Part shown: piece by piece, positions 13,482 to 63,892 of the stretch | Layout of the letters: every line of letters starts with the position of its first letter | Numbering within the stretch: position 1 is the stretch's first letter | Assembly (NCBI GenBank): GCA_022828125.1 | Contig: JAJEJD010000030.1 | Location: 26,176-90,175, forward strand | Origin: a bacterium | Lineage (GTDB): Bacteria; UBA8248 | Direction of reading: 5' to 3' | Length of the DNA: 64,000 bases | Program-made: the position numbers and the translations under genes | The notes under the pieces: model-generated | What the model was told of the DNA's origin: nothing | Database searches by the model: none | Seen by the model: only the letters and a program-made list of their open reading frames with translations

Positions 13482-13505
13482 CCGCGCAGGTCGCGTGACA
13501 GACGG

Positions 13506-13560: not shown

Positions 13561-13575
13561 TGGGGCTGATTCGTA

Positions 13576-14058: not shown

Positions 14059-14064
14059 CGCAAG

Positions 14065-15573
14065 ATGAACGGTGATTTGCTCCAGGGGTTCTACCTCGCC
14101 CTCGCGCCGACGAGCATTCTGGCAACGGCCTTGGGCGCGCTGCATGGCCTCGTATGCGGGATGATGCCGGGTCTGACGACGAGCGCGGGCATCATCATCC
14201 TGTTCCCGGTCACCTTCATCCTGGAGCCGACCACCGCCGTGGCGCTCCTGCTCGGCGTCTTCGCGGGCGGAATGACGGGGGGGAGCTTCGCCGCCATTCT
14301 CATCAACATCCCGGGTTCACCCTCGGCATCGGCCACCACGATGGACGGATTCCCCCTCACCCAGAAGGGAGAAGCCGGGCGGGCGCTGGGCGTTTCCATC
14401 GTATCGAGCTTCACCGGCGGTCTTTTCAGCTTCTTCTGCCTCATACTGATCGCTCCGCAACTCACGAAAGTGGCTCTTCAATTCCGGGCGGCCGACCTGT
14501 TCGGGCTGGTCTTTTTCGGCATGTCCGTCATCTCCGCCTTCGCGGCGAAATCGCTCGTCAAGGGTCTCTTGTCCACTTTTCTGGGCCTCATGATCGTGAC
14601 GGTCGGGATGGATCCGCTCGTGGGCACGGCGCGCTTCACCTTCGGGGACGCGAACATGCTCGCGGGAATCCACTTCATCGCCGCCCTCGTGGGCCTGTTC
14701 GCCATTCCGGAGATAGTGGCGAACCTGGCGGAAGGGAACATCCGCTCGGTCGCCTCCAGGTTCGGCCGCGTGTTTCCGAGTTGGGCGGACATCAAGAAGA
14801 TACGGCTTCCGGTGGCCATCGGCTCCATCGTGGGGACTTTCGTCGGTATTCTTCCCGGAGCGGGCGGCCCGATAGCCGTTTTCGTGAGCTACGACTACGC
14901 CCAGAAGGTCAGCAAGGAACCCGAGCAATTCGGAAAGGGCTGCGTGGAGGGCGTGGCCGCGCCCGAATCGGCGAACAGTTCCATCGCCGGCGGGGCGCTC
15001 ATTCCGATGATGACGCTGGGGATTCCGGGCGACCCGATAACCGCCATCCTCATCGGCGCCCTGCTGGTTCACGGCATGGCGCCGGGGCCGCTTCTTTTCG
15101 TGGAGCAGGGGCCTTTCGCTTTTTCCGTACTTTTCTCGTATTTCATCGCAATTTGCAGTACGGCGACGGTCGCGTTCCTGGGCTTGAGGCTTATCGTGAA
15201 ACTGCTGTCCATACCCCGCTCGCTGCTGCTTCCGATTATCGTCTCCCTGTGCGTTCTGGGGACGTACGCGCTCAGGAATTCTTTCTTCGACATCTACGTC
15301 ATGTTCTTTTTCGGCCTCGTGGCGCTTTCCTTCAAGTGGCTCGATATTCCGGTCGTTCCCATGCTGCTCGCGCTCGTGCTGGGGCGGCAGCTCGAGGAGC
15401 ACATGCGGGTCGCCCTCGCCGCATCGAAGGGCGACATCTCGATTTTCTTCACGTCTCCCTGGTGTCTGTTCTTCCTGTGCCTCTCGGTGATCTCCTTCGC
15501 CTGGCCGTTCTTTCTCGAGTGGAGAGTCAAGCAAAGAGCGCTCAAGAAGGCGTCCGCCACTCCCTCCGCCTAG
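14065..15573 (+). CDS. tctA: Tripartite tricarboxylate transporter large permease (TctA family), locus 1
   Basis: 502 aa polytopic protein. Conserved GxxPGxG and LGIPGD segments are shared with the two other TctA paralogues in the window. Confidence 0.9.
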   Translation: MNGDLLQGFYLALAPTSILATALGALHGLVCGMMPGLTTSAGIIILFPVTFILEPTTAVALLLGVFAGGMTGGSFAAILINIPGSPSASATTMDGFPLTQKGEAGRALGVSIVSSFTGGLFSFFCLILIAPQLTKVALQFRAADLFGLVFFGMSVISAFAAKSLVKGLLSTFLGLMIVTVGMDPLVGTARFTFGDANMLAGIHFIAALVGLFAIPEIVANLAEGNIRSVASRFGRVFPSWADIKKIRLPVAIGSIVGTFVGILPGAGGPIAVFVSYDYAQKVSKEPEQFGKGCVEGVAAPESANSSIAGGALIPMMTLGIPGDPITAILIGALLVHGMAPGPLLFVEQGPFAFSVLFSYFIAICSTATVAFLGLRLIVKLLSIPRSLLLPIIVSLCVLGTYALRNSFFDIYVMFFFGLVALSFKWLDIPVVPMLLALVLGRQLEEHMRVALAASKGDISIFFTSPWCLFFLCLSVISFAWPFFLEWRVKQRALKKASATPSA

Positions 15574-32834: not shown

Positions 32835-32873
32835 ACCGCCCGGGGGGAGCCGTCTTCGGCTCCCCCATGGGCG
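32835..32873 (+). terminator. Strong stem-loop between urtA and urtB (attenuator / 3'-end stabiliser candidate)
   Basis: Perfect GGGGAGCCG-TCTT-CGGCTCCCC (32843-32864) flanked by CCGCCC/GGGCGG. No T tract follows. Confidence 0.5.
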
Positions 32874-32938
32874 GCCCAAAAGAAAAACATGTGAATCGCA
32901 AATACCGGCGATGTGCCAAATACGGCGAAGGAGGGGGT

Positions 32939-34669
32939 ATGCAGCAAGCCGGCATCAGGGCGATTCCGCGTGGAGCGTCGGCGAGGTCATTCATATCTCG
33001 CGTCCTTATTCTGGTATTCGCGCTCGGCTTTGGTTTGGCCGCAAGGGGAGAAGCGCGAGCCGAATCATTTTCACCGGCCATCCAGGCGGAAATCGCACAG
33101 TTAGGATCGAAGAATCGAAAGAAAAGAAGACGCGCTGCCCTCGGTCTCGCGAAGCGCCTCGAGCCAAAGCTGCTACCCCTTCTTTTGGCGCTTCGCGAGG
33201 GCAGCCTTTTTCGCTGGAAGCCTGATTCGGGCGAGGCCCGGTTCGTCATCGGCGGAGACGCCGTGACGCGCGGGGAGGTGGAATACGTTCCCCTTTTCTC
33301 GATTCACGGGAAAAAACGGCTCACATCTCCGGACGGGAAACCCCTTTTCGTTCCCGATGGAAAGCTCAACAAAATCCGCGCCGGCAGAAGAATCCGCCGC
33401 GCCGTCAAACCCTATCTGAACCAGCTCCAAAGCTCGGCGCAGCTCCATTCCGCCGACCCGAACGTGCGCCGCGCAGCAGCCACGCGGATGGCGCGGGTGG
33501 GGGACAAGAACCTCATCCCGCTGCTCGACAAGGTCCTCGAGAACGAGACCCACTGGCTGGGCCGCCATGCGCTCATCGAGGCGAAGGCGCTGATCCGGCT
33601 GAAATCGCCGAACCCCGATGAGAGGCGCTCCGCCGCCGCCGCCCTCGGCGAGATTCACGGGCTGAACGCCGTCTCGGTGCTCCAGCGCATGGCGGACAAG
33701 GACGCCGACGCTTCCGTGCGCGCGGCGGCGAGCGAGGCCATCGGGGAGATCGAGGACTACCAGAGCTGGACGGCGACGATCGACACCCTGTTCCGGGGCA
33801 TGAGTCTGGGCTCCATCCTGTTGCTGATGGCGCTGGGGCTGGCCATCGTCTTTGGCCTCATGGGCGTCATCAACATGGCGCACGGGGAGTTGATGATGCT
33901 CGGCGCATACGCCACCTTCATCATCCAGGGCGTTTTCATCTCGTATCTGCCGCAAAATTACTTCGACTGGTATTTCTTGCTGGCGCTACCCGTCGCGTTC
34001 CTGGCTTCGGCCCTGATGGGCTGGCTCATGGAGATTTCCATCATCCGCCACCTCTACGGCCGTCCGCTGGAGACGCTGCTGACCACATGGGGGATCAGCC
34101 TGATCCTCCGGCAAGCCGTCCGCCAGGTGTTCGGCGCGCAGAACGTGGACGTGAAATCCCCCGAGTGGCTGAGCGGGGGGTATCACCTGATGGTCGGCGT
34201 CCAGTTTCCCTACAACCGCATGTTCATCATCGCGCTGGCCGTCTTCTGCGTGGCGGGCACGTATCTCTTCCTCTTCCGCACGCGGGCGGGCCTGCGGATT
34301 CGCGCCGTGACCCAGAACCGGGGCATGAGCACCTGTCTGGGCGTTCCCTCCCGCCGCGTGGACGCGGGCACGTTCGCCTTCGGCGCGGGGCTGGCGGGCA
34401 TGGCGGGCGCGGCCCTGAGCCAGGTCGGGAACGTGGGGCCCGATTTGGGGCAGAACTACATCGTGGATTCGTTCATGGTCGTGGTGACGGGCGGCGTGGG
34501 CAAGATTCTGGGAACCATCGTGGCGGGCTTCGGCATCGGCGGCATGAACAAGATGCTCGAACCGGCGATGGGCGCGGTGTTCGGCAAGGTGGTGATCCTG
34601 GTTCTGGTGATCCTCTTCCTGCAGAGAAGGCCGGAAGGGCTGTTCGCCGTCCGCACGAGAGGGGCTTGA
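32939..34669 (+). CDS. urtB: Urea ABC transporter permease with about 280 aa N-terminal HEAT-repeat-like extension
   Basis: ATG at 32939 with a GGAGGGGG RBS. N-terminal signal/TM segment, then repeated helical units (NVRRAAATRMARVGD, ERRSAAAALGEI, SVRAAASEAIGEI), then a LivH-type permease core. Confidence 0.9.
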   Translation: MQQAGIRAIPRGASARSFISRVLILVFALGFGLAARGEARAESFSPAIQAEIAQLGSKNRKKRRRAALGLAKRLEPKLLPLLLALREGSLFRWKPDSGEARFVIGGDAVTRGEVEYVPLFSIHGKKRLTSPDGKPLFVPDGKLNKIRAGRRIRRAVKPYLNQLQSSAQLHSADPNVRRAAATRMARVGDKNLIPLLDKVLENETHWLGRHALIEAKALIRLKSPNPDERRSAAAALGEIHGLNAVSVLQRMADKDADASVRAAASEAIGEIEDYQSWTATIDTLFRGMSLGSILLLMALGLAIVFGLMGVINMAHGELMMLGAYATFIIQGVFISYLPQNYFDWYFLLALPVAFLASALMGWLMEISIIRHLYGRPLETLLTTWGISLILRQAVRQVFGAQNVDVKSPEWLSGGYHLMVGVQFPYNRMFIIALAVFCVAGTYLFLFRTRAGLRIRAVTQNRGMSTCLGVPSRRVDAGTFAFGAGLAGMAGAALSQVGNVGPDLGQNYIVDSFMVVVTGGVGKILGTIVAGFGIGGMNKMLEPAMGAVFGKVVILVLVILFLQRRPEGLFAVRTRGA

Positions 34670-37659: not shown

Positions 37660-38031
37660 ATGATACCCGGCGAATACATTCTGGCGGACGGCGAGATCGT
37701 CCTGAACGAAGGGCGCGAGACAGCCACGCTCCTCGTGGCGAACCGGGGCGACAGGCCCATACAGGTGGGTTCCCACTTTCATTTCTTTGAAGTCAACCGC
37801 CTGCTCGATTTCGACAGGAAGGCGGCGTTCGGCATGCGGCTGGACATCCCGGCGGGAACGGCGGTGCGCTTCGAGCCGGGTGACGAGAAGGAGGTGACGC
37901 TCGTCGCCTTCGCGGGCGCGCGCACCGCCATGGGGCTGAACGCGCTGACCGAAGGCGCGCTCGATTCCGACGCCGTGCGTGAGGGCGCGATGGAGAAAGC
38001 CCGCGCCGAGGGCTACGGGGGGGCGGACTGA
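37660..38031 (+). CDS. ureB: Urease beta subunit
   Basis: MIPGEY...[17 protein letters not shown], canonical UreB. Confidence 0.95.
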
Positions 38032-39743
38032 TGGCTTTTCGTATGGACAGGCGCGCCTACGCCGACATGTTCGGCCCCACGGTGGGGGACAAGGTGCGCC
38101 TCGCGGACACCGATCTTTTCATCGAGGTCGAAGAAGACCGCACCGTCTACGGAGACGAGTCGAAATTCGGCGGCGGCAAGGTCATCCGGGACGGGATGGG
38201 GCAATCGCCCACCGAGACGCGAGAGGCCGACGCGATCGACCTGCTCATCACGAACGCGCTGATCCTCGACCACTGGGGCGTGGTGAAGGCGGACGTAGGG
38301 ATCAAGGACGGGAAGATCGCCGGAATCGGCAAGTCGGGCAACCCGCATCTCATGGAAGGTGTGGACATGACTATCGGCGCCGCGACGGAAGTCCTGGCGG
38401 GCGAGGGGATGATACTCACCGCGGGCGGCATCGACACCCACATCCACTTCATCTGTCCCCAGCAGATAGACGAGGCGCTCTCCTCGGGCGTCACCACCAT
38501 GTTCGGCGGGGGAACCGGCCCCGCCACGGGCACGAACGCCACCACCTGCACGCCGGGGGCGTGGAACATCGCCCGGATGCTCCAGGCGTCGGAGGCCTAC
38601 CCCATGAACCTGGGCTTCCTGGGCAAGGGGAACGCCTCGCGCCCCGGGCCGCTTGTCGAGCAGATACGCGCGGGCGCCGTGGGGCTCAAGCTCCATGAGG
38701 ACTGGGGAACCACGCCCGCGGCGATCGACTGCTGCCTCGGCGTGGCGGAGGACATGGACGTGCAGGTCTGCATCCACACCGACACGCTCAACGAATCGGG
38801 CTTCGTCGAAACCTCCATCGCCGCTTTCAAGGGCCGGACCATCCACACCTACCACACCGAAGGGGCAGGCGGCGGCCATGCGCCCGACATCATCCGCGTG
38901 TGCGGGGAGGCGGGCGTGCTGCCCTCCTCGACGAACCCCACGCGGCCCTTCACGGTGAACACGGTGGACGAGCATCTCGACATGCTCATGGTGTGCCACC
39001 ACTTGGACAGCAAGATTCCAGAGGACGTGGCCTTCGCCGAGTCGAGAATCCGGGCGGAGACCATCGCGGCGGAAGACATCCTCCACGACATGGGCGCGTT
39101 CAGCATGATGGGTTCGGATTCCCAGGCCATGGGCCGCGTGGGCGAGGTGGTCATCCGCACCTGGCAGACGGCGGACAAGATGAAGCGCCAGCGCGGCGGG
39201 TTGCCTGAGGAAACCGGCGCGAACGACAACTACCGCGCCAAGCGCTACGTGGCCAAGTACACCATCAACCCCGCGATCGCGCACGGCATCTCCGATTACG
39301 TGGGCTCGGTCGAAGTCGGCAAGATGGCCGACCTGGTGCTCTGGAAGCCCGCCTTTTTCGGCGTGAAGCCAGAGGCCGTGGTGAAGGGCGGCTTCATCGC
39401 TCACGCGGCGATGGGCGACCCCAACGCATCCATCCCCACGCCCCAGCCCGTTCTGGGCCGGCCCATGTTCGGCTCGATGGGGAAGGCGGTCGGCCCCACC
39501 TCTTACGCCTTCGTCTCTCAGGCGGCGGCGGAAGCGGGCCTCGGCGACGCGCTGGGTCTCACCAAGATCGTCGCCCCCGTCTCGAACTGCCGCGCCATCG
39601 GCAAGAAGGACATGCGCCTCAACGACGCCCTGCCCGATATCGAGGTCGATCCCGAGACCTACGTGGTGAAGGCGGACGGGGAGACGCTCACGTGTGAGCC
39701 CGCCGAGGTGCTCCCCATGGCGCAGCGGTATTTTCTGTTCTAG
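38031..39743 (+). CDS. ureC: Urease alpha subunit
   Basis: 570 aa. [16 protein letters not shown] and [12 protein letters not shown] motifs. Confidence 0.97.
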
Positions 39744-42430: not shown

Positions 42431-42730
42431 GTAGGGACAGGTCGCGACCTGTCCCTACGGTGGGATCCCGACCGACTCTCGCGGGGCTGTTGAAAAAGCC
42501 TTTCTCAAAAGAGCAACCCCCCCTACCCCCCCTTGACAGGGGGGTAAAAAAGAGCAAAAGCCCCTCAGCCCGGCGGGGGCGCATCGCCTTTTCATACCCC
42601 CCTGACAAGGGGGGGTAGGGGGGGTTGCCTTTCAGGCGTCCCTCGATACGGCCCTTACGGGCCTACTCGGGATGAGGAGGTTTTATATCTTCCTCACCCT
42701 GAGTAGCCGCCGAAGGCGGCGTATCGAAGG
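42431..42730. repeat. Intergenic repeat mosaic: R2 hairpin + T motif + R1 palindrome + R5 pair
   Basis: GTAGGGACAGGTCGCGACCTGTCCCTAC (42431-42458), GGGGCTGTTGAAAAAGCC (42482-42499), R1 at 42511-42629 and R5 at 42642-42730. Confidence 0.75.
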
Positions 42731-47263: not shown

Positions 47264-47701
47264 ATGTTTTACCTTCGCGATTTTGCCTCGGTTGCCACCC
47301 CAAAACCCCTTGTGTAGTGTTGATCGTACCGAAAAGACAGATTCTCTGAATTCCTGCGCGGGGGAGGATGCCATGGCTGCGAAGTCCAGGGTGGATGTCC
47401 TGATCGAGAACGGAACCGTCGTCACCGTGGACCCGCAGCGGCGGGTCATCCGCAAAGGCGCCGTCGCGATTGCGAAGAACCGGATCAAGGACGTGGGGAA
47501 GGCTTCGGCGCTCCGGAAAAAATACGAGGCCAGGCGCACCTACGACGCCACCATGAAGCTCGTCACCCCCGGCCTCATCAACGCGCACATCCACTTCTAC
47601 CACCACATGCACCGGGGCCTCTCGCCCGAGACCCTGGCGGGCATGCCGTGGTCCGACTTCGTCCACCGCAAGGTCGCCACCATCGTGAATGCGGAGGACG
47701 A
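47264..47701. repeat. Direct duplication, copy 1 (amidohydrolase leader plus first 110 codons)
   Basis: Aligns base-for-base with 50342-50779 with scattered substitutions. The encoded peptides differ at 8 of 110 positions. Confidence 0.9.
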
Positions 47702-47702
47702 T
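47373..47702 (+). pseudogene. 5' fragment of a TRZ/ATZ-type amidohydrolase gene, truncated by the AT-rich insertion
   Basis: MAAKSRVDVLIENGTVVTVDP...NAHIHFYHHMH... matches the first 110 residues of 50451-51839. After 47702 the frame runs into unrelated low-GC sequence. Confidence 0.85.
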
Positions 47703-47977
47703 AAAATCAAAGCCAAGAACCAGATCAATAAGAACCCTCAGGGTGCTGCCCCCCCCCGAAGAAAATCATTCCACATATCCCTGGGACACCGGAATAAATC
47801 GCGAAGGCGCTCTTCGACGCCAACGACAAGAGATTCCAGACTCCGGGTTGAGAGCAAGAGTTCTTGTGCCTGCCTTTCCTTGAGGCAGTAGTGCCTTTCT
47901 CAGCCCAGGTCCGGAGAGGAGACTGATAGACCCTTCCACTTGAGATACCTCTCTCCAGGCCGCATGGAGGGTTCATC

Positions 47978-48052
47978 ATGTATGAAATAACTGTATGGGT
48001 TTTTCTGATCAGCGGAATCGTCACGGCCGCAGTTTTTGGCATTTCCATATAA
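47978..48052 (+). CDS. Possible 24-aa hydrophobic micro-ORF (MYEITVWVFLISGIVTAAVFGISI)
   Basis: ATG with GGAGGG about 7 nt upstream and a single predicted TM helix. It lies at the head of the island cassette and is too short for the ORF track. Confidence 0.25.
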   Translation: MYEITVWVFLISGIVTAAVFGISI

Positions 48053-48165
48053 ATTGCAAAATTGGACAATGTATGATATTTTGCGCTCCGATCTCTAAAC
48101 ATTTTCAGAGGGGAACGGTGCCTTTCGAAGGGGCTGTTGCCCTATTTCTGTTTAAGGAGATTTTA

Positions 48166-48438
48166 ATGACACCGCCCGAACCAACAAACATTATCGGACC
48201 GGATGGAACTCCCAGGAAAGCTTACGATGTTCCGATCTTAGAGTCCAACGAAAAAGTTAGCGAAGTAAAGCTTGAAGATGGAACAATTCTTTACGTTAAG
48301 GCATCGCCTATCAGCGTTCTTAGGATAGATGGCGTGTGGGATGCCCACAACAACCCTATGTATTCGGTTCAAAGCAACACGGTAATCGGAGTAAAACACG
48401 CCCCGACTCAGTTAAAGAGGGGGCATGATGATGGCTAA
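48166..48438 (+). CDS. Hypothetical protein (90 aa), island cassette gene 1
   Basis: ATG with AAGGAG 7 nt upstream. The sequence looks beta-rich. No family recognised. Confidence 0.5.
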   Translation: MTPPEPTNIIGPDGTPRKAYDVPILESNEKVSEVKLEDGTILYVKASPISVLRIDGVWDAHNNPMYSVQSNTVIGVKHAPTQLKRGHDDG

Positions 48439-48943
48439 ATTCAGCGCACATGCGATATCGGATACACCACATTTCTCTGCGGGCGAATGGTGGAGTTCTG
48501 GGGTCGTTCAACGTGTTGATGACAGTAAAACCAGAGAGAATCTTCCTACGCAAACAGAGCTCTCCCAGTCTGAAAATTTTTACACTGGAATAGAAAATAT
48601 AATGAATGAGCTTCTCAGGATTAGGGAAGTCGCCAAAGATGAAGGATTCCTTGAACCTTCCGGAATGGTTATTCAGAGCGCAGAAAAAGTGTTAAATAAA
48701 ATTCATGCAATCTATCCTCGGGAATACGATATTTTCCCAACCCCAGATGGGGAAATATCCATTGAGACTCCTATAGGAATCGGCAGCTCACTGTGGTGTA
48801 TTTGCAAACCTTCTGGGCAAGTAATATTCATGGTTTACATTCAAGGAGAAAAACAGCGTCGTAAAGATTATGATGATCTAATGGCCTTTCCCGATGAATT
48901 TGTTATTAAAGCTTTGAACGATCTTAAAGCTCGAATAAACTAA
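48425..48943 (+). CDS. Hypothetical protein (172 aa), island cassette gene 2
   Basis: ATGATGATG start preceded by AGAGGGGG and overlapping the gene 1 stop by 14 nt. No family recognised. An internal start (MNELLRIREV) is possible. Confidence 0.5.
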   Translation: MMMAKFSAHAISDTPHFSAGEWWSSGVVQRVDDSKTRENLPTQTELSQSENFYTGIENIMNELLRIREVAKDEGFLEPSGMVIQSAEKVLNKIHAIYPREYDIFPTPDGEISIETPIGIGSSLWCICKPSGQVIFMVYIQGEKQRRKDYDDLMAFPDEFVIKALNDLKARIN

Positions 48944-48952
48944 TTCCACGCA

Positions 48953-49381
48953 ATGCTTCCAGAAGAATTTTCTCCAGAAGAAAAGCTCGGGCGTTACGTC
49001 ACATCCAAACCCAACGCTGCCGGAAGAATCACCCATCATGTTTTCTTTGACAAGAAACAGGACGCATTATCCGTTGACAGGCTCAGCTATGCCTCTTGTG
49101 ATGAAGCGGCAAAGCTTGGAGATGAATTTGCCGAAAGTATCGGTAGGAATTTTTACGGTTGGGGTGTTGTTTTAGCTGGAGATGCGGAGAAAGATGAACG
49201 TAGTTTATTATACCAGCCCATTCTTCCAGAGAATCCTTACCATAGCCATATAATTCTGCCGGACATATCTGAAAGTGGCAAATATGAACATGCCCATGCA
49301 TTGGCAAAAAAAGCACACTTCAAACCAAAACCCCAAACTGATCCATCCGATTGTTCATCCGCGGAGATAGAAAATGAGTGA
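48953..49381 (+). CDS. Hypothetical protein (142 aa), island cassette gene 3
   Basis: Starts 9 nt after the gene 2 stop. Contains LSVDRLS and ENPYHSHIILP segments. No family recognised. Confidence 0.55.
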   Translation: MLPEEFSPEEKLGRYVTSKPNAAGRITHHVFFDKKQDALSVDRLSYASCDEAAKLGDEFAESIGRNFYGWGVVLAGDAEKDERSLLYQPILPENPYHSHIILPDISESGKYEHAHALAKKAHFKPKPQTDPSDCSSAEIENE

Positions 49382-49721
49382 AGAAGAGATCAAAAAAGGA
49401 TGGGAAGAGTCCAGGGAACCGTTCGACGAAGAGGAAATAAAAAAAGAGCTTGAAGATATCAGGCAAGGGATGACTCAACTTGAAGATTCCATAGGTGGAG
49501 AATTGGTTGCCATTAGGGGTGTTCTTGGCCTGACTTTTCGCTTGGCCTTAATTTTGGCTCCTAATGATACTAGACGTTTATGTATAGAACAGATTAAAGA
49601 TTTGGAGATAGGCCCTGGAAGTGATTTAACAAAGGAAGAATTTAATAGGTTCAAGGAAATATTTATCCAAGAAATCCCTGATAGCTTTACAGAAAATCCG
49701 TCCAACGAACTTTCAGACTGA
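49374..49721 (+). CDS. Hypothetical protein (115 aa), island cassette gene 4
   Basis: The start overlaps the gene 3 stop by 8 nt. Acidic coiled-coil-like N-terminus (EEEIKKGWEESREPFDEEEIKKELEDI), then a hydrophobic stretch. Confidence 0.5.
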   Translation: MSEEEIKKGWEESREPFDEEEIKKELEDIRQGMTQLEDSIGGELVAIRGVLGLTFRLALILAPNDTRRLCIEQIKDLEIGPGSDLTKEEFNRFKEIFIQEIPDSFTENPSNELSD

Positions 49722-49819
49722 TCCACTACCCATTTTTTGCATTATTTCCCCTTCGTCAAAAGAAAAAGCCTCATCTGCACGGCCTTCCTCTCCAGCTCAC
49801 TCCATTTCGTGAGCTCACT

Positions 49820-50220
49820 CTAAGTAAGCCGTTTCCCTTCGAACCCCTGCACCAGCACCTTCATGCCCCGAGGGGCTCCAGTGGCCGCATATTGTGGCGT
49901 CCGACAAACTCGTTCACATAGCGGTGCAGATGCTTGGAGCTCATCTTGTGATAGGTGCCCATGTATCTGCGCTTGTGTAGCGCCTAGAAGGACTCCACCC
50001 GGTGCATGACGGTGTTGGTGCGAACGCTGAAATACTCGCGGCAGTCGGTGCATCAATACGGCATGGGCTTCTCTCTGGGTACGCATGAGATTTTTACGGA
50101 GCCGCAATAGGGGCAGAATTGTCCCTTACCCCAGCGGATATCTTCGAACCATTTCCGTGCGGTTTCTTCATTCGGGAACATATTAAGTAGCTGAATGAGC
50201 GTGATGGCTTCCTGAGTCAT
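49820..50220 (-). mobile_element. Decayed IS1595-family (ISXO2-like) transposase remnant
   Basis: The minus-strand translation starts MTQEAITLIQLLNMFPNEETARKWFEDIRWGKGQFCPYCGS...CTDCREYFSVRTNTVMH (Zn-ribbon N-terminus). It then jumps to GTYHKMSSKHLHRYVNEFVGRHN (C-terminal motif). In-frame TGA at 50053-50055 and TAG at 49984-49986. The central DDE domain is missing. Confidence 0.75.
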
Positions 50221-50341
50221 TTGAAGTCTTCCATTATGTGTGAGGACTTTCCCGAACGGAAATGCTTTCTACAAAGTAGGAGACGAGAAATTATGTTAAG
50301 TTAGATGCACTAAATTATGCCTAGTCAGGTAAGTAAGTCCC

Positions 50342-50779
50342 ATGTTTTACCTTTGCCGTTTCGCCTCGGTTGCCACCTAAAAACCCCTTGTGTAGTGTTG
50401 ATCGAACCGGAAAGACAGATTCTCTGAAATCCTGCGCGGGGGAGGGTGCCATGGCTGCAAAGACCAAGGTGGATGTCCTGATCGAGAACGGAACCGTCGT
50501 CACCGTGGACCCGGAGCGGCGGGTCATCCGCAAGGGCGCGGTCGCCATAGCGAGGAACCGGATCAAGGACGTCGGGAAGGCTTCGACGCTTAAGAAAAAA
50601 TACGAGGCCAGACGGACCTACGACGCCACCATGAAGCTCGTCACCCCCGGCCTCATCAACGCGCACATCCACTTCTACCACCACATGCACCGGGGTCTCT
50701 CGCCCGAGACCCTGGCGGGGATGCCGTGGTCCGACTTCGTCCACCGCAAGGTCGCCACCATCGTGCGTGCGGAGGACGA
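50342..50779. repeat. Direct duplication, copy 2 (leader plus first 110 codons of the intact amidohydrolase)
   Basis: See 47264-47701. Confidence 0.9.
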
Positions 50780-51839
50780 GATATGGGGCGGACTCGGGAT
50801 TCTGGTCGAAACCCTGAAGACCGGCGTGACGACCTTCCTCGAGGCGGGCTCCTACAACATCGGCCCCGTCATCGAGGGCGTCTCCCGCATCGGAATGCGG
50901 GGCCTGATGGGCCGCAGGTCCTTCGACATGGTGAGCCAGGGCCACGACATGCTGGTCGACAGCACCCGGAAGTGCCTGAGCGAGAACGAGAAGTTCATGA
51001 AGGACTACCGGGGCGGGGTGGGGCTCGTGAAGCCCTGCGTCGTCGTCGTCGGGATGGGGCGCTGCTCGGACCGGCTCTACGTCAAGTCCAAGGAGATGGC
51101 CGACAAGTACCGGACCATCCTCCACATGCACCAGGCCAACATGATCGAGAATGTCCAGGAGAGCCTGAGCTTAAACGGCGCCCGCCCCATCGAGCATCTC
51201 TACAACATCGGCGTCCTCGGGAAGAACGTGGCCCTCACCCACATGGTCCACGTGAGCGCGAAGGAGATCGGGCTTCTCGCCGAGACGCGGACGAACGTCC
51301 TGCATTGCCCGAGCACCGCCATGAAGATCAGCTACGGCCTCTCCGCCTTCGGGAAGTTCCCGGAGATGATGGAGGCGGGCGTCAACGTCGCCATCGGCAC
51401 CGACGCGTCCGACTGCTCGAACTTCAACGACATGGTGCGCCTCATGTACCTGGCGGCGGCGACGCCCAAGGACTACCGCTACGACCCGGCCGCGGGGAGC
51501 GCCGAGAAGGCCATCGAGATGGCGACCATCAACGGCGCAAAGGCGATGAACATGGAGCGGGAGATCGGTTCACTGGAACCGGGCAAGAAGGCCGACGTCG
51601 CCATCTTCGACATGAAGCGGCCGGACTGGGTCCCCCTCTACAACGAGCTCCAGAATTTCGTCTATTCGGCCCAGGGGAACAGCTGCGAGAGCGTCATGGT
51701 CGACGGGAAGTTCGTGATGGAGAACCGCGAGGTCAAGACGATAGACGAGGCGGAGATCGTGGAGCGTATCGGGCGCCTCGCGAAAGGGGTCATCAAGCGG
51801 AGCAAGGTGCCGCTCTACAGCCCGTGGAAGTTCATCTAG
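50451..51839 (+). CDS. Amidohydrolase, TRZ/ATZ / cytosine-guanine deaminase-like (metal-dependent hydrolase superfamily)
   Basis: 462 aa from the ATG at 50451 (GGGGGAGGG RBS). HxH motif NAHIHF. Later HMHQ, HCP and GTDA segments fit the amidohydrolase metal ligands. Confidence 0.85.
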   Translation: MAAKTKVDVLIENGTVVTVDPERRVIRKGAVAIARNRIKDVGKASTLKKKYEARRTYDATMKLVTPGLINAHIHFYHHMHRGLSPETLAGMPWSDFVHRKVATIVRAEDEIWGGLGILVETLKTGVTTFLEAGSYNIGPVIEGVSRIGMRGLMGRRSFDMVSQGHDMLVDSTRKCLSENEKFMKDYRGGVGLVKPCVVVVGMGRCSDRLYVKSKEMADKYRTILHMHQANMIENVQESLSLNGARPIEHLYNIGVLGKNVALTHMVHVSAKEIGLLAETRTNVLHCPSTAMKISYGLSAFGKFPEMMEAGVNVAIGTDASDCSNFNDMVRLMYLAAATPKDYRYDPAAGSAEKAIEMATINGAKAMNMEREIGSLEPGKKADVAIFDMKRPDWVPLYNELQNFVYSAQGNSCESVMVDGKFVMENREVKTIDEAEIVERIGRLAKGVIKRSKVPLYSPWKFI

Positions 51840-54653: not shown

Positions 54654-54907
54654 GATAAAGGCAACCCCCCCTACCCCCCCTTGACAGGGGGGTATAAAAA
54701 GGCGACGCCCGCCGCCGGGCTGAGGGGGGTTTGCTTTTTCTTGCCCCCCTGTCAAGGGGGGGTAGGGGGGGTTGGTTTTGTAGGGGCGGGCCTCTGTGCC
54801 CGCCCGTATTGGGAATGTCTATGCCCGCAAGAGGCCTCGGACAGGCACGGAGGCCTGTCCCTACGGCTAACAATCTCGAAGGTCGGATAGACTTTTTCAA
54901 CAACCCC
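54654..54907. repeat. Intergenic repeat mosaic: R1 palindrome + two R2 hairpins + T motif (reverse)
   Basis: R1 at 54654-54779, GTAGGGGCGGGCCTCTGTGCCCGCCC (54780-54805), GGACAGGCACGGAGGCCTGTCCCTAC (54839-54864) and CTTTTTCAACAACCCC (54892-54907). Confidence 0.75.
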
Positions 54908-55276: not shown

Positions 55277-55560
55277 GGGGTTGTTGAAAAGCCGCTTCTT
55301 CAGAGGATAAAGGCAACCCCCCCTACCCCCCTTGACAGGGGGGTATGAAAAGGCGACTCCCGCCGCCGGTTGAGGAGCTTTTGTTTTTTCTTGCCCCTCG
55401 TCGATGTAGTAACCCCCCAATCCTTATCAGGGGGCTTTCTTTTTTTACCCCCCTGTCAAGGGGGGGTAGGGGGGGTTGGTTTTGTAGGGACAGGCCTCCG
55501 TGCCTGTCCTGACGAAGGACAACCACGGAGGGCAGGACAACCCCAAAGGGTTGTCCCTAC
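55276..55560. repeat. Intergenic repeat mosaic: T motif + R1 palindrome (expanded centre) + R2 hairpins
   Basis: GGGGGTTGTTGAAAAG (55276-55291), R1 at 55306-55483, GTAGGGACAGGCCTCCGTGCCTGTCC (55484-55509) and 55517-55560. Confidence 0.75.
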
Positions 55561-58103: not shown

Positions 58104-58512
58104 AAAACCAACCCCCCCTACCCCCCCTTAACAGGGGGGTCTTTTTTTAATCCCCCCTGTCGGGGGGGATCTTCTTTGTTTTTACCTCTTGTCGGGCGCA
58201 TTGCTTTTTCAGTCGGGGGGCATTGCTTTTTTTTACCCCCCTGTTAAGGGGGGGTAGGGGGGGTTGCTCCCTCCACCGAGGAGAATCCTGAATTCACTCC
58301 CCCCTTTCAGACTTGTTTGCTATTCAGCAGAGAGGATCCACTCCCCCCTTGAGGGGGAGTCAGTGAGCTAAGGGCGCAAGTCCGCAAGCGAACTGGTGGG
58401 GGGAGTTTTTTCTGTGGCATGTCCCCCCACCGAGTCAGCCTTCACCTGTCGGTTCGGCTTCCTCGTCGGGCTTTCCCCTCGGGAAGCCCGACCCTCAAGG
58501 GGGGAGTTGATC
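58104..58512. repeat. Intergenic repeat mosaic: R1 palindrome (58104-58267) + R4 structured element (58334-58512)
   Basis: R1 arms are CCCCCCCTACCCCCCCTTAACAGGGGGG / CCCCCCTGTTAAGGGGGGGTAGGGGGGG. R4 ends are GGATCCACTCCCCCCTTGAGGG / CCCTCAAGGGGGGAGTTGATC. Confidence 0.75.
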
Positions 58513-58582
58513 TTGTTCTTTCATCGGATGAACCAAACCCTCGATGGGGGGGTTGGTTTCGAGACGGCGGGGGATTGCCGAC

Positions 58583-58620
58583 AAAAAAACCGTTTCGCAG
58601 GCTAAACGCGCGCGAAACGG
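58583..58620 (-). terminator. Intrinsic-terminator-like hairpin, best read on the minus strand
   Basis: Perfect 9-bp stem CCGTTTCGC/GCGAAACGG (58590-58620). A7 lies on the plus strand 5' of the stem, which gives a T7 tail on the minus strand. A weaker TTTT lies on the plus side. Confidence 0.4.
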
Positions 58621-59101
58621 CAAATTTTCCGTTCTTGATTCTCTGGATTCCGATAATTTCTATTATCAGACAATACAACACCTCTCAAAACCATGTCAAG
58701 CGCAATTCCGGGGTCCCCGGAGGAGTTTTCGGGCGTCGTTTTTCGTCTTTTTTCGCTCGTTTCCGGCCCAAATGCGCCCCGAAACGGATTTTCCCGCCGA
58801 AAACGGGGCTTCCAGCGTCCCGTAATAGAAATTAGCGGTGGACAGGCCGGGCGCGAGGCGCTCGAAAGATACTCGCCTTTGGAGGCCGGGAAAGGTGGGC
58901 GCATACCGCAAAAATTCGCCTCCCGCGGAACGACCGGCCCGGACGATGCGTCCGCAAGTCCGCCGTATTTCAGGCGGCCCAAAATACGAATCATCGTTTT
59001 GTGAAGACCAGTATATCGAGAAGGAAAGGAGGTTAATCGGAGAAAGCCGGAAACTCACGGAAAATCCCTTTTTCTACTGTGTATTCAGGAGGACTCACTA
59101 A

Positions 59102-60799
59102 ATGACGTTCAAAAACAAGCATATTCACAAGCTCTACGCTTTTGCGCTGGCGGCGGTCTTCGCGCTGACGCTGGCGGGCTGCGGCGGCGGTGGCGGCAGC
59201 GCTGCTGCGCCGGACCCGGAGCCGCCCGCAATGCCGGAACCCACCCCGCAGGAAATGTGCGAGGGTGACGGCGGCCGGTACAACGCGGACGGCTCCTGCA
59301 CCTCCGCCGCGGCTCTGGCCGAAGAGATGGCCCTGAGCGGCGCACAGGAAGCCGCGATGGCCGCTTACATGGCGGCGATGGCCGCCGTGGGCGGCGCGGT
59401 GGACCCCGTGGCGATGGCGAACGCGCAGGCGTACGCGGACATGGCCAAAACCGCGTCCGACGCGGCGGCTGCGGCCACGACTTCGGCGATGGCCATGGAA
59501 TACCAGATGAAGGCCGAGATGTACCGCGACATGGCGATGGAAGCGGGGATGGAAGCAGGTTTGGGCATTACCATGCTCGGGAACCTGCAACTAAACAAAG
59601 CACCAGAAGATTTGCAGGAACAGCCTGACCCGCCGAAACCCATTACGAACGTGAGAAATGTCCACACCGAGATAAATGCTGTTTCTCAGACAACGACTCC
59701 GAATAGTTCCGGGGCTACCGTACCTACGGTCACGGTAACTTACGCCGCAACGGCCACTAAGCCAACATTTACAATTGCCGACTATGAGTCCGGCGAATCA
59801 CCAAAGAGTTTCTCGATGGGTAACTTCATGGGAACCGAATTGGTGAACGTTGAAACCGTAGATTCAGTAAACGGAAGAACGAATGTCGTTCTTTATTCAG
59901 ACAGGGCGCAAACTGAATCTGTAACCAATTATTCCGCCACCGCAACCGGATTCGTTGCTGCTGGCTCTCTGAACACTGCCACTGCCGCAAATCATGTCAC
60001 CTCACTGTCAGAGGGTCAGATTTCAGGAGCTATGGGAGATAAGGTAGAGGGCACATATAATGCGGATTCGAGAGACAATAACCCGGCTCTATCGGGCGCC
60101 TTCTACTGTAATTCAGCTCTATGTACCCTGACAGTAAATTCCAAGGGAATGATAACTGCAAACGTCGGTTATGAATTCCGTCCGGCAGACGGCAAGACAA
60201 CAAAAGATGATTCAAGCTATCTCACCTTGGGCTTCTGGCTTACCGCTCCCACCGCCTTGAGTGCGGCTGGGGAAGCGCCTGGCGGTATCGTGGTAGGCGC
60301 TTTTGGGATGGGGCAAGGAACTGCTGTTGAAATACCGGCCGCGCTAGAAGGAACGGCCACCTATGAAGGTATCGCTACCGGCCTGTATGCAACAAAGGAC
60401 GGTATCAGCTACTTCAGTGGTGACGCCATGCTCGAGGCTAACTTTGGACAGGTAAAGGGCCTGGCTGCTGATGCTACTGATGCTACTCCTGGTTTTCGGG
60501 GAAGTGTAAGCGGAAGCATTTCGAACATCACTGCTGGTGGAATGAAGATGGAAGGTGAGCTCGGCCTGTCTGCTGCGAATATTGCTGGTGATACAACTGG
60601 CACATATTCCGGAAATACAAAAGGCAGCGTAGGAGACAGCAGGTTTGTTGGAAGCTGGAGAGGAACATTCTATGAAGCAGGAAGAGCGTCCACTCCGGCC
60701 GATTCAAGGTATCCAATGTCTACCGCTGGAACGTTTAGTGGTTATGATGAATACAACAACTCCAGCATCTTGGGGGCCTTCGGAGCAAATAAACAATAA
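59102..60799 (+). CDS. Surface-lipoprotein candidate with Met-rich helical N-domain and TbpB/fHbp-like C-terminal beta-barrel
   Basis: 565 aa. Signal peptide plus lipobox LTLAG-C followed by a GGGGGS linker. The C-terminus ...FVGSWRGTFYEAG...TAGTFSG...ILGAFGANKQ fits the transferrin-binding-protein-like solute-binding (Lipoprotein_5-type) barrel ending. Lower GC than the backbone. Confidence 0.75.
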   Translation: MTFKNKHIHKLYAFALAAVFALTLAGCGGGGGSAAAPDPEPPAMPEPTPQEMCEGDGGRYNADGSCTSAAALAEEMALSGAQEAAMAAYMAAMAAVGGAVDPVAMANAQAYADMAKTASDAAAAATTSAMAMEYQMKAEMYRDMAMEAGMEAGLGITMLGNLQLNKAPEDLQEQPDPPKPITNVRNVHTEINAVSQTTTPNSSGATVPTVTVTYAATATKPTFTIADYESGESPKSFSMGNFMGTELVNVETVDSVNGRTNVVLYSDRAQTESVTNYSATATGFVAAGSLNTATAANHVTSLSEGQISGAMGDKVEGTYNADSRDNNPALSGAFYCNSALCTLTVNSKGMITANVGYEFRPADGKTTKDDSSYLTLGFWLTAPTALSAAGEAPGGIVVGAFGMGQGTAVEIPAALEGTATYEGIATGLYATKDGISYFSGDAMLEANFGQVKGLAADATDATPGFRGSVSGSISNITAGGMKMEGELGLSAANIAGDTTGTYSGNTKGSVGDSRFVGSWRGTFYEAGRASTPADSRYPMSTAGTFSGYDEYNNSSILGAFGANKQ

Positions 60800-60818
60800 G
60801 CTGATTTAGCTTTATCCT

Positions 60819-60850
60819 GCCGCCCCCTTCAATCAACAAAGGGGGGCGGC
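60819..60850 (+). terminator. Stem-loop between the two lipoprotein genes
   Basis: GCCGCCCCCTT-CAATCAACA-AAGGGGGGCGGC. No T tract follows. Confidence 0.3.
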
Positions 60851-60862
60851 CAAAGGGGGCGA

Positions 60863-62527
60863 ATGATGAAAATGCTCAGGCATTTGGTTTTGGTCATGTG
60901 CGTAATAAGTTTGATGTCATTCGCCTCCGGCTGTGGCGGTGGGGGAGGGGGAGGGGCAACTACACCACCTGGCGTTACCGAACCCGAACCTACCCAACCA
61001 ACAGAAACACAAAGGATAGCAACTGCAAGGAATACCCTGGCTAATATTGTCTTAAGTGCACGTTCAGCGGCATTGGATGTGCAGAGTTCCGCTTCTTTCA
61101 TAGCAAACAGTCAAGACGCTACAGTTTCGCAAGTAACAAGCGCTGGTGAATATAACAGCGCTGCTCAAAGCGCCTTGGTAGACGTGGAGGCTGCGGAAGA
61201 TTCGGGAATTGCCGCAACCACTCTCGCGCAGATTGAACTTGCGATATCCAGCGCACGATCAGCGGCATCTAGGATAACATCTGCGCGATCATCTATTTCA
61301 ACCATTGAAACTGGTGTTCGAGCCGTTGAAACGCAACGGAGACAAAGGGCGGCGGACGAACTCGCCCAGACGGGCGGCTCCTCGCTCATCGAATACTTGA
61401 GGGATAACAAGAAAGTATCTGATGCGGTTCTAGCCGGCTTGGCGGCCACTTCCCTCCTGGCGGGGCAGACAGGTACTAATACAGGTTCCGCCACTTACCC
61501 ATACCACAAAGGTGACCCCGCAACGCAATTTCCAATACCCAGGAATACAGATAGAGGCGTGCTGGAAGTAACGATATCGGTCGATGGGACAGATGTATCA
61601 TCGAATAGCCAGACGGGCAAAATCTCCGGATCAGGACGTCTTTCCAATGGCTTCGACCTGAAAGACGGCGGCAATTTCGCCACTGTTTACACAGATATTG
61701 AGGTAGCGCAAAGGGTAAGACAAAAAACAGGGAATACTGCCACAGATAGTGCCCTAGAGGACACTACTGTAGGGGAAACAGACGACGGTATAGATCAGAG
61801 GTTTCAGTACGTCGCCGACGATGATTATCTGCTCGCCGGAATCTGGCTCGATGATTCAGCAACTGACGGTTCTGCTCCCGTCCTGAGAGCTTTTGCATTC
61901 GGGAGTCAGCTTCTCGCCGCGACACACGATTTCTGCACCGCTGCTGATGTAACTAACACCAGTTCGCTGTCCAGGGCGTGCGGTAATGCGGACGGTAGAG
62001 CCTTTAACACGATAACCGGATTCGTTGACGTAAATGAGAGCACGGAAGCAACTTACCGTGGGGGTGTGAACGGCGCGTATTTCGCCGGCGGAAAGGCCAG
62101 CCATTTCAAGGCGAATGTATCGCTCACGGCTACGTTTGTGCGCGGAACCGGGACAGATGTTTCGGGTAGCAAGATTTCAGGAGCAATCACGGATATCAGC
62201 GCCGGTGGAAATTCCATCACGGGCAGCATTGATTTGAAGGAACAGGCGCTTACAACAGATGACATAAGCGCCGCTTTTACTGGTGAGGCCGCTGGTGTAA
62301 TAGCGGGTCACGCCTATACCGGCAACTGGAGGGGTCAGTTCTTCGGAATGAGAGCCACGAAGACTTCAGAAACTGCTGATGTTTCAGGCAACGATCCCGA
62401 AAGAACAACAACGACAACCTACACCCCGGACGAACCTAATTCGGTTGCAGGCTCGTTTTATGTCGACAGGCAGACGGTTGGCGAAGGAGACGCCGCCTTC
62501 ATCGGGGCGTTCGGGGCGCACAGGTAA
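60863..62527 (+). CDS. Second surface-lipoprotein candidate with a TbpB/fHbp-like C-terminal beta-barrel
   Basis: 554 aa. Lipobox FASG-C followed by GGGGGGG. The C-terminus ...YTGNWRGQFFGM...SVAGSFYV...FIGAFGAHR has the same barrel ending as 59102-60799. Lower GC than the backbone. Confidence 0.75.
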   Translation: MMKMLRHLVLVMCVISLMSFASGCGGGGGGGATTPPGVTEPEPTQPTETQRIATARNTLANIVLSARSAALDVQSSASFIANSQDATVSQVTSAGEYNSAAQSALVDVEAAEDSGIAATTLAQIELAISSARSAASRITSARSSISTIETGVRAVETQRRQRAADELAQTGGSSLIEYLRDNKKVSDAVLAGLAATSLLAGQTGTNTGSATYPYHKGDPATQFPIPRNTDRGVLEVTISVDGTDVSSNSQTGKISGSGRLSNGFDLKDGGNFATVYTDIEVAQRVRQKTGNTATDSALEDTTVGETDDGIDQRFQYVADDDYLLAGIWLDDSATDGSAPVLRAFAFGSQLLAATHDFCTAADVTNTSSLSRACGNADGRAFNTITGFVDVNESTEATYRGGVNGAYFAGGKASHFKANVSLTATFVRGTGTDVSGSKISGAITDISAGGNSITGSIDLKEQALTTDDISAAFTGEAAGVIAGHAYTGNWRGQFFGMRATKTSETADVSGNDPERTTTTTYTPDEPNSVAGSFYVDRQTVGEGDAAFIGAFGAHR

Positions 62528-62910
62528 GAGAGCAGAGACGCCTTCGGTCCGGGGGTTTCATGTCCTGAGCCTGAGGCGGGCGAAGGAAGAGGAAGAAGAG
62601 TGGAAAAGGGGGTTGCCCGTTGGTTGCTTCCCTCGTGATGAGCAAATTGTACCGCTCCTTGCTGTGAGTTTGAGTCCTCGAGCCGGGAACGGGAACAACG
62701 GGCAGCCCCCACTTTCAGCTTCAAGAAAGCAACCGACACCCCGACTCGGCCTGTGCCTCGGGAATCGTGTCGCAGCAGTTCCCATCTTCAGGGGTTTTTT
62801 CAACCCCTTAAAGCAGTCCTTTGAGGGGTGTCGGCCCTTTCTCTTCCTGAGCGGATGCGCTCGCCTCTTCGCCTTGAAAATAAACTCATCCTACCTTCCC
62901 CTTGACCGGG

Positions 62911-63396
62911 GATAAAGGGACAGCCCCTCCTCGGGGCTGTCCTGCCCCCCCTACCCCCCCTTGTCAGGGGGGTATAAAAAAGCAACCCCCGCAAAGAAGG
63001 ATCAACTCCCCCCTTGAGGGTCGGTCTTTCCCCTCGGGAAGACCGACGAAGAGCTAAGGGCGAAGCCCGCAAGCGATTCGGTGGGGGGACATGCCATGGA
63101 TAAAACTCCCCCCACCACATCGGCCTTCGCACAAACCGCTCGGCCTCTGTCGGGCTTTCCCCTCGGGAAGCCCGACCCCCTCAAGGGGGGAGTTGATTGT
63201 TGAGTGCTCTACAAGGGTCTTTCTTTTTCATGCCCCCCTGTTAAGGGGGGGTAGGGGGGGTTGCTTTTCGAGGCGAGAGCAAACGCTCATTCATCAATCG
63301 CGTTTGACCTTCGATACGGCGCTTACGCGCCTACTCAGGATGAGGAAGGTGAGGGGCGGAGCCCGCCCCGAGCGAAGTCGAGGGGCCGCTACTCAG
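62911..63396. repeat. Nested repeat mosaic: R1 palindrome split by an R4 element, followed by R5
   Basis: R1 left arm at 62911-62990, including an R2-like hairpin at 62918-62942. R4 at 62999-63197. R1 right arm at 63231-63264. R5 at 63309-63396. Confidence 0.75.
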
Positions 63397-63892
63397 GGTG
63401 AGGGGTGCCGGGCGGCGCGGCGGTGCGGCGGATGAGTTCCTTCAGCGCCTCCATGTTCTCGTGATGCTGTTCGCTCTGCTCCCCGCGCAGCGCCTTGAGC
63501 GCCTCCATGTTCTCGTGATGCGTGCGTTCCATCGCGTTCATGGTTTCGCGGTGCTGAGCTTTTTGATCCTCGCGCTGTGCGGCGAGCGCTTCCATGGTTG
63601 CGATGTGCTGTTTGCTTTGCGCCTCGCGCTCGGCGGCGAGCGCCTCCATGTGTTCGCGGTGGCGGCTGTCGAGCGCCTTCATGGTTTCGCGGTGCTGGGC
63701 GTCGCGGTGGCGCGCGGCCTGGCGCATGAAGTAGAGGCCGTAGGCTATCAGGGAGCACTGCGCGGCCCCCACGAGCGCGGCGACCCACACGGAGGCCTGC
63801 TGCGCTACGAGAGACGCTTTCTGGATGGCCAGGGATGATTCCTGTATGGCGAGACTTGCGGCTTCGTATTCCGTCACTTGGTTTTCCCCCAC
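63389..63892 (-). CDS. Membrane-anchored protein with six tandem H-x3-M helical repeats
   Basis: 167 aa, GTG start. TM segment VWVAALVGAAQCSLIAYGLYF. Repeats are HRETMKAL, HREHMEAL, HIATMEAL, HRETMNAM, HHENMEAL and HHENMEAL. The DNA shows the matching ~55-bp periodicity. Confidence 0.6.
   Translation of the reverse strand: MGENQVTEYEAASLAIQESSLAIQKASLVAQQASVWVAALVGAAQCSLIAYGLYFMRQAARHRDAQHRETMKALDSRHREHMEALAAEREAQSKQHIATMEALAAQREDQKAQHRETMNAMERTHHENMEALKALRGEQSEQHHENMEALKELIRRTAAPPGTPHPE

Follow-up and report, generated by a model that had tools for sequence, protein, structure and literature searches.

The Slam-dependent class of surface lipoproteins with a handle-plus-barrel fold is defined by TbpB, LbpB, HpuA and fHbp (Hooda et al. 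2017, PMC5449769), and hemophilin is a Slam-dependent haemophore (PMC8560813). Promoter inversion, in turn, controls surface structures in the fimS segment of Escherichia coli type 1 fimbriae, with its FimB and FimE recombinases, and in the many invertible promoters (invertons) per genome of host-associated Bacteroidales symbionts, which govern capsules, S-layer and outer-surface lipoproteins (PMC4611039, PMC10403206, PMC11602134). Here, we analyse a stretch of 64,000 nucleotides, hereafter the window (assembly GCA_022828125.1, contig JAJEJD010000030.1, positions 26,176 to 90,175 of the forward strand; GTDB lineage UBA8248), in which two tandem genes, A and B, lie downstream of a candidate promoter switch. 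We propose, with a probability of roughly 70%, that A and B encode paired outer-membrane lipoproteins of the TbpB/HpuA/fHbp class and are carried in a cassette of invertible promoter, leader, lipoprotein genes and 3' element, which would render the cell surface phase-variable.

Like the Slam-dependent neisserial lipoproteins (TbpB, LbpB, HpuA, fHbp and NHBA) and hemophilin HphA (PMC5449769), A and B combine a lipobox cysteine followed by poly-glycine, a predicted beta handle with a small C-terminal barrel, and a C-terminal motif of the type GxFYG...AG(T/S)F...GAFGA, and in some lineages a Slam gene lies directly downstream of the pair. Unlike them, A and B have no significant match to PF01298 or PF08794, carry an extra N-terminal three-helix bundle, always occur as a pair of diverged paralogues with no TonB receptor partner, and come from uncultured, apparently sponge-associated hosts (Nitrospinota, Nitrospirales and other phyla). 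With fimS, the locus shares a promoter segment between inverted repeats, a tyrosine recombinase gene adjacent to it (in related loci) and a link to surface structures. It differs from fimS in that the recombinase is Cre-like (about 345 aa) rather than FimB-like, that the promoter apparently alternates between two targets, the recombinase in one state and the lipoproteins in the other, and that each genome has many switches, each with its own repeat core. The multiplicity of candidate invertible promoters, their association with surface molecules of a host-associated symbiont and the predominance of the predicted OFF state at any one time recall the Bacteroidales invertons, from which the present system is set apart by phylum, sponge host, recombinase, repeat consensus, a cargo of TbpB-like lipoproteins and a conserved RNA-like element at the 3' end of the cassettes. 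A lipoprotein family with a conserved 5' region and signal peptide but variable mature parts, together with inversions driven (here putatively) by a tyrosine recombinase, is also found in the vsa, vsp and mpl systems of Mycoplasma. There, silent genes are moved to a single expression site, whereas here the promoter itself would flip at each locus and the hosts are diderm bacteria.

The proposed promoter switch and its candidate recombinase

The cassette in the window comprises the following features, read from left to right.

58563-58649, no strand: spacer remnant; its counterpart in paralogous loci lies between the switch and the start of a Cre-like recombinase gene in divergent orientation
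58650-58669, no strand: left inverted repeat (IRL), candidate recombinase core site, CCGATAAT-TTCT-ATTATCAG
58670-58818, minus strand: candidate invertible segment of 149 bp with a sigma-70-like promoter, TTGACA (58699-58694), N18, TATTGT (58675-58670), pointing away from gene A
58819-58838, no strand: right inverted repeat (IRR), CCCGTAATAGAAATTAGCGG; over 12 nt, its core is reverse-complementary to that of IRL
58839-59101, plus strand: conserved leader of 263 nt with a ribosome-binding site, AGGAGG, at 59087-59092
59102-60799, plus strand: gene A, lipoprotein of 565 aa, Cys27 followed by poly-Gly; Cys53-Cys66 hairpin, three-helix bundle (residues ~69-150), beta handle (~211-405), C-terminal barrel (~417-564)
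60863-62527, plus strand: gene B, lipoprotein of 554 aa, Cys24 followed by poly-Gly; long three-helix bundle (residues ~48-170), beta region (~198-375), C-terminal barrel (~392-553) homologous to that of A
62604-62714, plus strand: structured 3' element; 33 base pairs form a three-way junction, in which GAGUUUGAGUCCUC is invariant; sense to the genes

Related loci were collected by a scan of species-representative genomes, which yielded 67 loci (given L numbers) whose open reading frames (ORFs) were extracted, clustered and profile-searched. The first sign of inversion was that in two of them only the sides of the upstream flank aligned directly, its middle aligning in the opposite orientation. 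In the window, the 20-bp repeats contain a 16-nt inverted repeat (58650-58665 and 58823-58838) that is 94% complementary, and the promoter, which is the sole promoter-like site in 58500-59150, abuts the left repeat. A census of the related loci reveals 27 switches (the window and 26 other loci), all with perfect 12-nt cores of the form TAAT-NNNN-ATTA within conserved arms. The central bases of these cores come in at least 14 variants between loci, are all distinct within each genome and are always equal in the two repeats of one locus; each repeat pair thus has a private core. Tyrosine recombinases need identical crossover regions in their partner sites, and the locus-private, matching central bases would therefore keep different loci from recombining with one another.

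The promoter points away from the lipoprotein genes in 24 of these switches and toward them in two. Two sites are flipped relative to the window, L051 and the second site of L045, with breakpoints at the repeats. In its metagenome-assembled genome (MAG), L051 has the promoter facing the lipoprotein genes. In two public runs, contigs run from the left flank of L051 directly into the far end of the segment, read from the opposite strand, which is the orientation not seen in the MAG; fourteen letters at the joint fit both sides and represent the repeat itself, and the reciprocal junction is also present. One of the inverted-orientation contigs has 0 mismatches in the flank, and a third run holds the MAG orientation. 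Inversion at the repeats is thus directly observed at this one paralogous locus. Every identified ORF downstream of a switch has a lipobox; around eleven of the switches precede an A-B pair, and the remainder precede other lipoproteins.

In 13 related loci, the switch is adjoined by a divergently oriented tyrosine recombinase gene, which, where examined in detail, starts no more than about 100 nt from the left repeat. The protein scores 65 bits against PF00589 and matches Cre over nearly its full length (E 5e-13), and comparison with named recombinase families gives none above threshold. In the common orientation, the promoter reads into this gene. The homology of the window to L069, L053, L058 and L045 begins at 58563, at the start of their recombinase genes.

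We propose the following working model. The cassette would be ordered as a promoter segment between 20-bp inverted repeats, a 263-nt leader, variable lipoprotein genes and a structured RNA-like element. With their conserved arms and locus-unique central bases, the repeats resemble tyrosine-recombinase core sites, and we infer that the adjacent recombinase acts on them. If the TTGACA/TATTGT hexamers act as a promoter, one orientation would drive the recombinase gene, and the flipped one would drive the lipoprotein genes, such that A-B would be on and the recombinase off. Such an arrangement, repeated at many loci, would amount to an ON/OFF switch like fimS and would make the surface lipoproteins phase-variable. 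The window copy, with its promoter directed away from A-B, would currently be OFF. As its adjacent recombinase gene has been lost, flipping in the window would depend on paralogous recombinases encoded elsewhere, which could act in trans on this orphan switch given that the repeat arms are conserved across loci.

Genes A and B and their probable export

The earlier note on this DNA, made from the sequence alone, described A and B as two ORFs, each with a signal peptide, a lipobox cysteine, poly-Gly, a helical N-terminal domain and a shared C-terminal ending reminiscent of TbpB- and fHbp-like barrels, and most of this description holds. Both proteins have a signal peptide and a lipobox, LAGC in A (Cys27) and ASGC in B (Cys24), and residues G26 and C27 of A and G23 and C24 of B are invariant in the family alignments. 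The C-terminal motifs are GSWRGTFY...AGTF...LGAFGA in A and GNWRGQFF...AGSF...IGAFGA in B. AlphaFold2 models of both proteins, with mean predicted local distance difference test (pLDDT) values of 83.6 for A and 90.6 for B, display a disordered linker after the lipid anchor, a three-helix bundle that corresponds to the helical N-terminal domain, a beta-rich middle and a C-terminal antiparallel barrel, the strand number of which is taken from secondary structure rather than counted in three dimensions.

A Foldseek search with the A model, in line with the structure prediction that the earlier note had called for, retrieves HpuA (5ee4, E 3e-5) together with TbpB, fHbp and the C-domain of NHBA (E up to 9e-4), with probabilities of 0.84-1.0 and template modelling scores of 0.59-0.67 relative to the target. 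By its predicted model, A belongs to the TbpB/HpuA/fHbp structural class. A and B are similar only in their last ~150-200 residues, and there the sequence comparison establishes homology (BLASTP 2e-10; hhalign 99.95%, E 5e-38), by which the TbpB/fHbp-like fold can be extended to the C-terminal domain of B. The barrel assignment is in this way upheld by structure for A and by homology for the C-terminal domain of B, and it finds no counterpart among sequence families: the suggested profile searches with TbpB_B_D- and Lipoprotein_5-type models give no significant Pfam match for the window proteins, and neither PF01298 (TbpB_B_D) nor PF08794 (FHBP_C) matches any of them at E<=1. PF01298 is matched by 2 of 66 family members, the better at E 0.019. 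An NCBIfam "invert_tail" match (E 0.012) covers only signal peptide and lipobox and was disregarded.

A and B are members of large families of unnamed MAG proteins. The profile of their shared C-terminal domain matches 2132 cluster representatives, many of which have several copies of the domain, and gives a weak match to hemophilin (8gm3, E 0.009). In particular, it matches one protein of 2461 aa three times, and the same protein has a PF01298 TbpB_B_D domain (60 bits); because this multidomain protein carries both domain types, it links the C-terminal domain of A and B indirectly to PF01298. Matches of the profile to GH76 mannanases (E ~0.001) were judged compositional because these are all-alpha enzymes. 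We consider A and B tandem lipoproteins that are probably distant members of the Slam-dependent, TbpB-like class.

Beyond A itself, its N-terminal module (signal peptide, lipobox, poly-Gly, Pro-rich linker and Cys-x12-Cys hairpin, MCEGDGGRYNADGSC) is shared at 52-80% identity by other lipoproteins whose mature parts are unrelated to A. The similarity spans the first ~100 codons and is seen in L041, L045, L050, L053, L058, L062, L066 and others, with the gene at ~10001.

In about 34 loci, A and B recur as a fixed module, in this order and on one strand. A Slam gene (PF04575) lies directly after the pair in six Nitrospirales loci (L018, L019, L020, L024, L030 and L034; ~13450-15230 in most), and in the alphaproteobacterial locus L056 a distant A-like gene is followed, ~3.7 kb further downstream, by the start of a Slam ORF. 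These homologues score 78-84 bits against PF04575 (cut-off 22) and contain the tetratricopeptide repeat region of Slam. The adjacency of Slam to A-B is thus a plain observation in other lineages, and, since the pair stands directly before Slam in Nitrospirales, it suggests that the family is most likely exported to the cell surface; by the same reasoning, A and B of the window would reach the surface. As the earlier note had said, the window has no Slam gene and no TonB receptor gene, the latter according to a scan of its ten largest other ORFs.

Some further observations concern the Slam genes themselves. L018 and L020 each contain two B-Slam units that are turned toward one another. The Slam survey of Hooda et al. 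2017 covered Proteobacteria only (PMC5449769), and the homologues in Nitrospirales MAGs lie outside it. A Slam profile search yields 1028 related proteins, of which one, in a Latescibacteria MAG, is named DUF560, and the best 120 matches listed from the profile's homology search contain only Nitrospirales-type proteins. A group II intron maturase domain occurs in an ORF of L056 (15211-17568) that runs into the Slam reading frame.

The 3' element, conserved flanks and reshuffled cassette parts

Downstream of gene B, the cassette ends in the structured 3' element. Across 39 copies, 98.4% of the cells at paired positions are indeed paired, and 12 pairs show compensatory changes; none of 500 shuffles reaches this level of covariation, and slid controls are 37-62% paired. 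With a covariance model, the related loci give 64 plus-strand matches, a count in which overlapping loci enter some sites twice, and the window gives exactly one. The best matches lie directly downstream of A-like, B-like or other lipobox genes. At the same sites, the sense strand scores 114-122 bits and the reverse strand ~31 bits. No Rfam family matches the element, and an identity as transfer RNA or transfer-messenger RNA was rejected for want of a match. The element is conserved and structured, an undescribed structured RNA motif with good covariation support, and the simplest guess is that it may act at the mRNA 3' end, in stability or in termination.

The non-coding flanks of the cassette are conserved far better than its genes. 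Approximately 470 nt upstream of A are 73-86% identical at the DNA level in at least 25 loci, and ~110 nt downstream of B are 86-95% identical in more than 40, while the A proteins of flank-sharing loci are only ~45% identical. Within the leader, 11 loci share the proximal part (59022-59110) at 85-94% identity, and additional loci match its last ~70 nt. Between paralogous cassettes, homology breaks off on the left at the recombinase or the switch and on the right at the 3' element (~62710, or 62910 in five loci).

The composition of the pair is distinct from that of its surroundings. GC content is 55.4% in gene A and 52.9% in gene B against a window mean of 61.2%, and the GC content of third codon positions (GC3) is 0.565 and 0.499, compared with 0.896 in the flanking amidase gene and 0.89 in a TctA gene; the lower GC noted earlier is therefore strongly confirmed, and the codon usage of the locus is atypical. 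Nor is synteny kept in close relatives: the closest orthologues of gene A (84-88% identity) sit in wholly different neighbourhoods. Additionally, the coding region and the flanks of the window locus have discordant relatives. The coding part is nearest to loci with a different, AT-rich upstream flank, and the flanks are nearest to loci whose A proteins are distant, which indicates that the parts of the cassette have been reshuffled. Comparison across relatives, which the earlier note had proposed, thus finds no synteny and a composition unlike the backbone, and its idea of an exchanged or variable antigen locus is borne out by the non-synteny, the atypical codon usage and the discordant relatives.

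The AT-rich flank represents a second type of 5' flank before A-B pairs (L003, 9300-10000; also L001, L004, L005, L025, L049 and L054). It is found in the genome nearest to the window by protein identity, has no match to the switch region of the window, and has only the last ~70-90 nt before the start codon in common with the switch-type flank.

The public runs that contain the window sequence are sponge metagenomes. Its relatives are MAGs labelled Nitrospinota, Nitrospirales, Binatia, Alphaproteobacteria or just "bacterium", and the main sources of the A/B family as a whole are sponge-metagenome runs and MAGs whose bin names are of sponge style. Sponge symbionts have to avoid ingestion by their filter-feeding host and to resist phages, and the candidate factors so far have mostly been eukaryote-like repeat proteins. 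The large, unannotated TbpB-like lipoprotein family described here, which spans several phyla and mainly sponge metagenomes, is a new candidate factor, with Slam genes beside it in Nitrospirales MAGs and many private, putatively invertible promoters in one lineage. The system would offer a concrete, testable case of surface variation in an uncultured symbiosis. Its conserved arms and locus-specific crossover cores would likewise provide material for studies of recombinase specificity. A literature search on invertons in sponge symbionts or Slam in sponges found no relevant paper. More tentatively, and with somewhat less than even odds, the cassettes may form a genome-wide self-toggling system in sponge symbionts, in which dozens of inverton cassettes with private cores each use one promoter alternately for a Cre-like recombinase and a TbpB-like pair, end in the new structured RNA, and exchange their coding parts between cassettes and between co-resident phyla; the bacteria would then present a variable surface toward sponge cells or phages.

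Competing explanations and other features of the window

Several observations weigh against the proposed reading, and two alternatives build on some of them. The promoter is a consensus match only and lies promoter-away in 24 of the 27 switches, with the ON state read from two loci, and no RNA run holds gene A. Among assembled Logan contigs, which drop rare variants, the window switch has one orientation only in the runs that hold it, and the L069 switch has no flipped form. A tblastn search finds no recombinase gene in the window, where homology stops at 58563 beside the dispersed repeat R4 (below). The missing gene and the single orientation would fit a silent, decaying cassette, locked promoter-away and unswitchable, whose recombinase gene was deleted by repeat insertion. 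We regard this as unlikely: both ORFs remain intact over their full length, the 12-nt repeat cores match perfectly, the hexamers of the promoter have been retained, the conserved arms make action of paralogous recombinases in trans possible, and at least one other switch, in L062, also has no adjacent recombinase gene. On the protein side, a Foldseek search with the full-length B model returns porin noise and no significant match, and neither A and B nor their family profiles reach threshold against Pfam, including its TbpB family, NCBIfam or PDB sequences. Slam is found neither in the window nor in the loci fetched from its lineage (~150 kb from the closest genome), and no TonB receptor recurs as a neighbour of A-B among the related loci. 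Of these points, the lack of Slam, of a TbpB-family match above threshold and of a recurrent TonB receptor would also be expected if A and B were periplasm-facing outer-membrane lipoproteins in this lineage, with a barrel that reflects shared ancestry only and no action of Slam. To this explanation, too, we assign a low probability, as the same A-B pair is contiguous with Slam in Nitrospirales and promoter-inversion phase variation is seen mainly for surface structures. Moreover, the Slam1 gene of Neisseria is not adjacent to its substrate genes either, and poly-Gly behind the lipid-anchor cysteine is typical of neisserial surface lipoproteins.

The remaining alternatives concern the cassette as a mobile unit, the first of which relates to two dispersed repeats, R1 and R4, present on both sides of the pair.

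58104-58297, no strand: R1, left; palindromic repeat resembling repetitive extragenic palindromic (REP) or miniature inverted-repeat transposable (MITE) elements, arms 58113-58165 and 58228-58297
58334-58512, no strand: R4, left; second dispersed module, with an inverted copy at 63000-63122
62911-63294, no strand: R1, right, with nested inverted R4; arms 62946-62998 and 63225-63294

The earlier note had read R1 and R4 as a bracket around a recombining cassette. The repeats do exist at roughly the coordinates it gave, and one might envisage that they bound or mobilise an exchanged A-B cassette like the ends of a composite or MITE-flanked element: the R4 copies are mutually inverted, the right one being nested inside the R1 palindrome in opposite orientation to the left one; several paralogous loci have R1 0.4-0.9 kb after B or just upstream of the cassette; and the locus has atypical GC3 and is non-syntenic. 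We nevertheless consider this very improbable. R1, a G/C-run palindrome with core CCCCCCTACCCCCCCTTGACAGGGGGG, occupies most of the larger intergenic spacers of the window, including four others (4242-4350, 42509-42636, 54657-54779 and 55317-55509), and recurs in many related MAGs, and R1 and R4 occur in many copies per 20 kb in most related loci, beside unrelated genes. The bracket around A-B is consequently not specific to the cassette and is what any long spacer would show. Furthermore, homology between paralogous cassettes does not end at R1 or R4, and no transposase is associated. R1 and R4 are neither the boundaries nor the agents of exchange; the conserved units are the ~470-nt 5' flank and the ~110-nt 3' element, and the repeats are REP-like elements dispersed over the whole genome, to which we ascribe no special role at A-B. 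Even less probable is an integron-like array in which the tyrosine recombinase would be the integrase, the 3' element an attC site and the lipoprotein genes promoterless cassettes. The divergent recombinase, the conserved folded element after each gene unit and the two units in series in L058 and L051 recall such an array, but the score with the integron-integrase model TIGR02249 is 22.6 bits (cut-off 265), every first unit is preceded by a promoter-bearing flank of its own, and the inversion junctions lie at the upstream repeats. The 3' element, in addition, shows no evident R'/R'' box consensus, and its three-way junction, rich in G-U pairs on the sense strand, fits an RNA better than a recombination hairpin.

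Separately, a diversity-generating retroelement was considered for a reverse transcriptase (RVT_1) gene beside the family locus L002 (8118-8846) and was rejected, as there is no template/variable repeat pair and the C-termini are conserved.

The window contains a number of minor features besides the cassette. A further highly repeated module lies at ~63280-63400, and the repeated elements are sometimes nested in one another. A minus-strand ORF of 167 aa (63389-63892) with no Pfam match contains repeated HRETM.A(L/M)-type units, which are encoded by a 116-nt direct repeat at 141-nt spacing (63444-63559 and 63585-63700, 74% identical). A low-GC island at 47264-50641 (43-45% against ~62%) lies between 300-nt direct repeats (47264-47563 and 50342-50641) that are 91% identical and represent the duplicated 5' end of the amidohydrolase gene 50370-51839. 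Within the island lie four small ORFs of 147, 172, 142 and 115 aa, none of which matches Pfam, and the island looks like an insertion that split or duplicated the start of the amidohydrolase gene. On the minus strand, 38210-38472 matches the Rfam family of the 5' ureB antisense small RNA (94 bits) inside the urease alpha-subunit gene (38031-39743), and this match is probably due to the conserved coding sequence of urease and not to a genuine small RNA. Finally, a plus-strand gene at 32867-34669 has an unusual architecture, in which HEAT repeats form the N-terminal part of a fusion with a branched-chain amino-acid ABC permease domain (PF02653).

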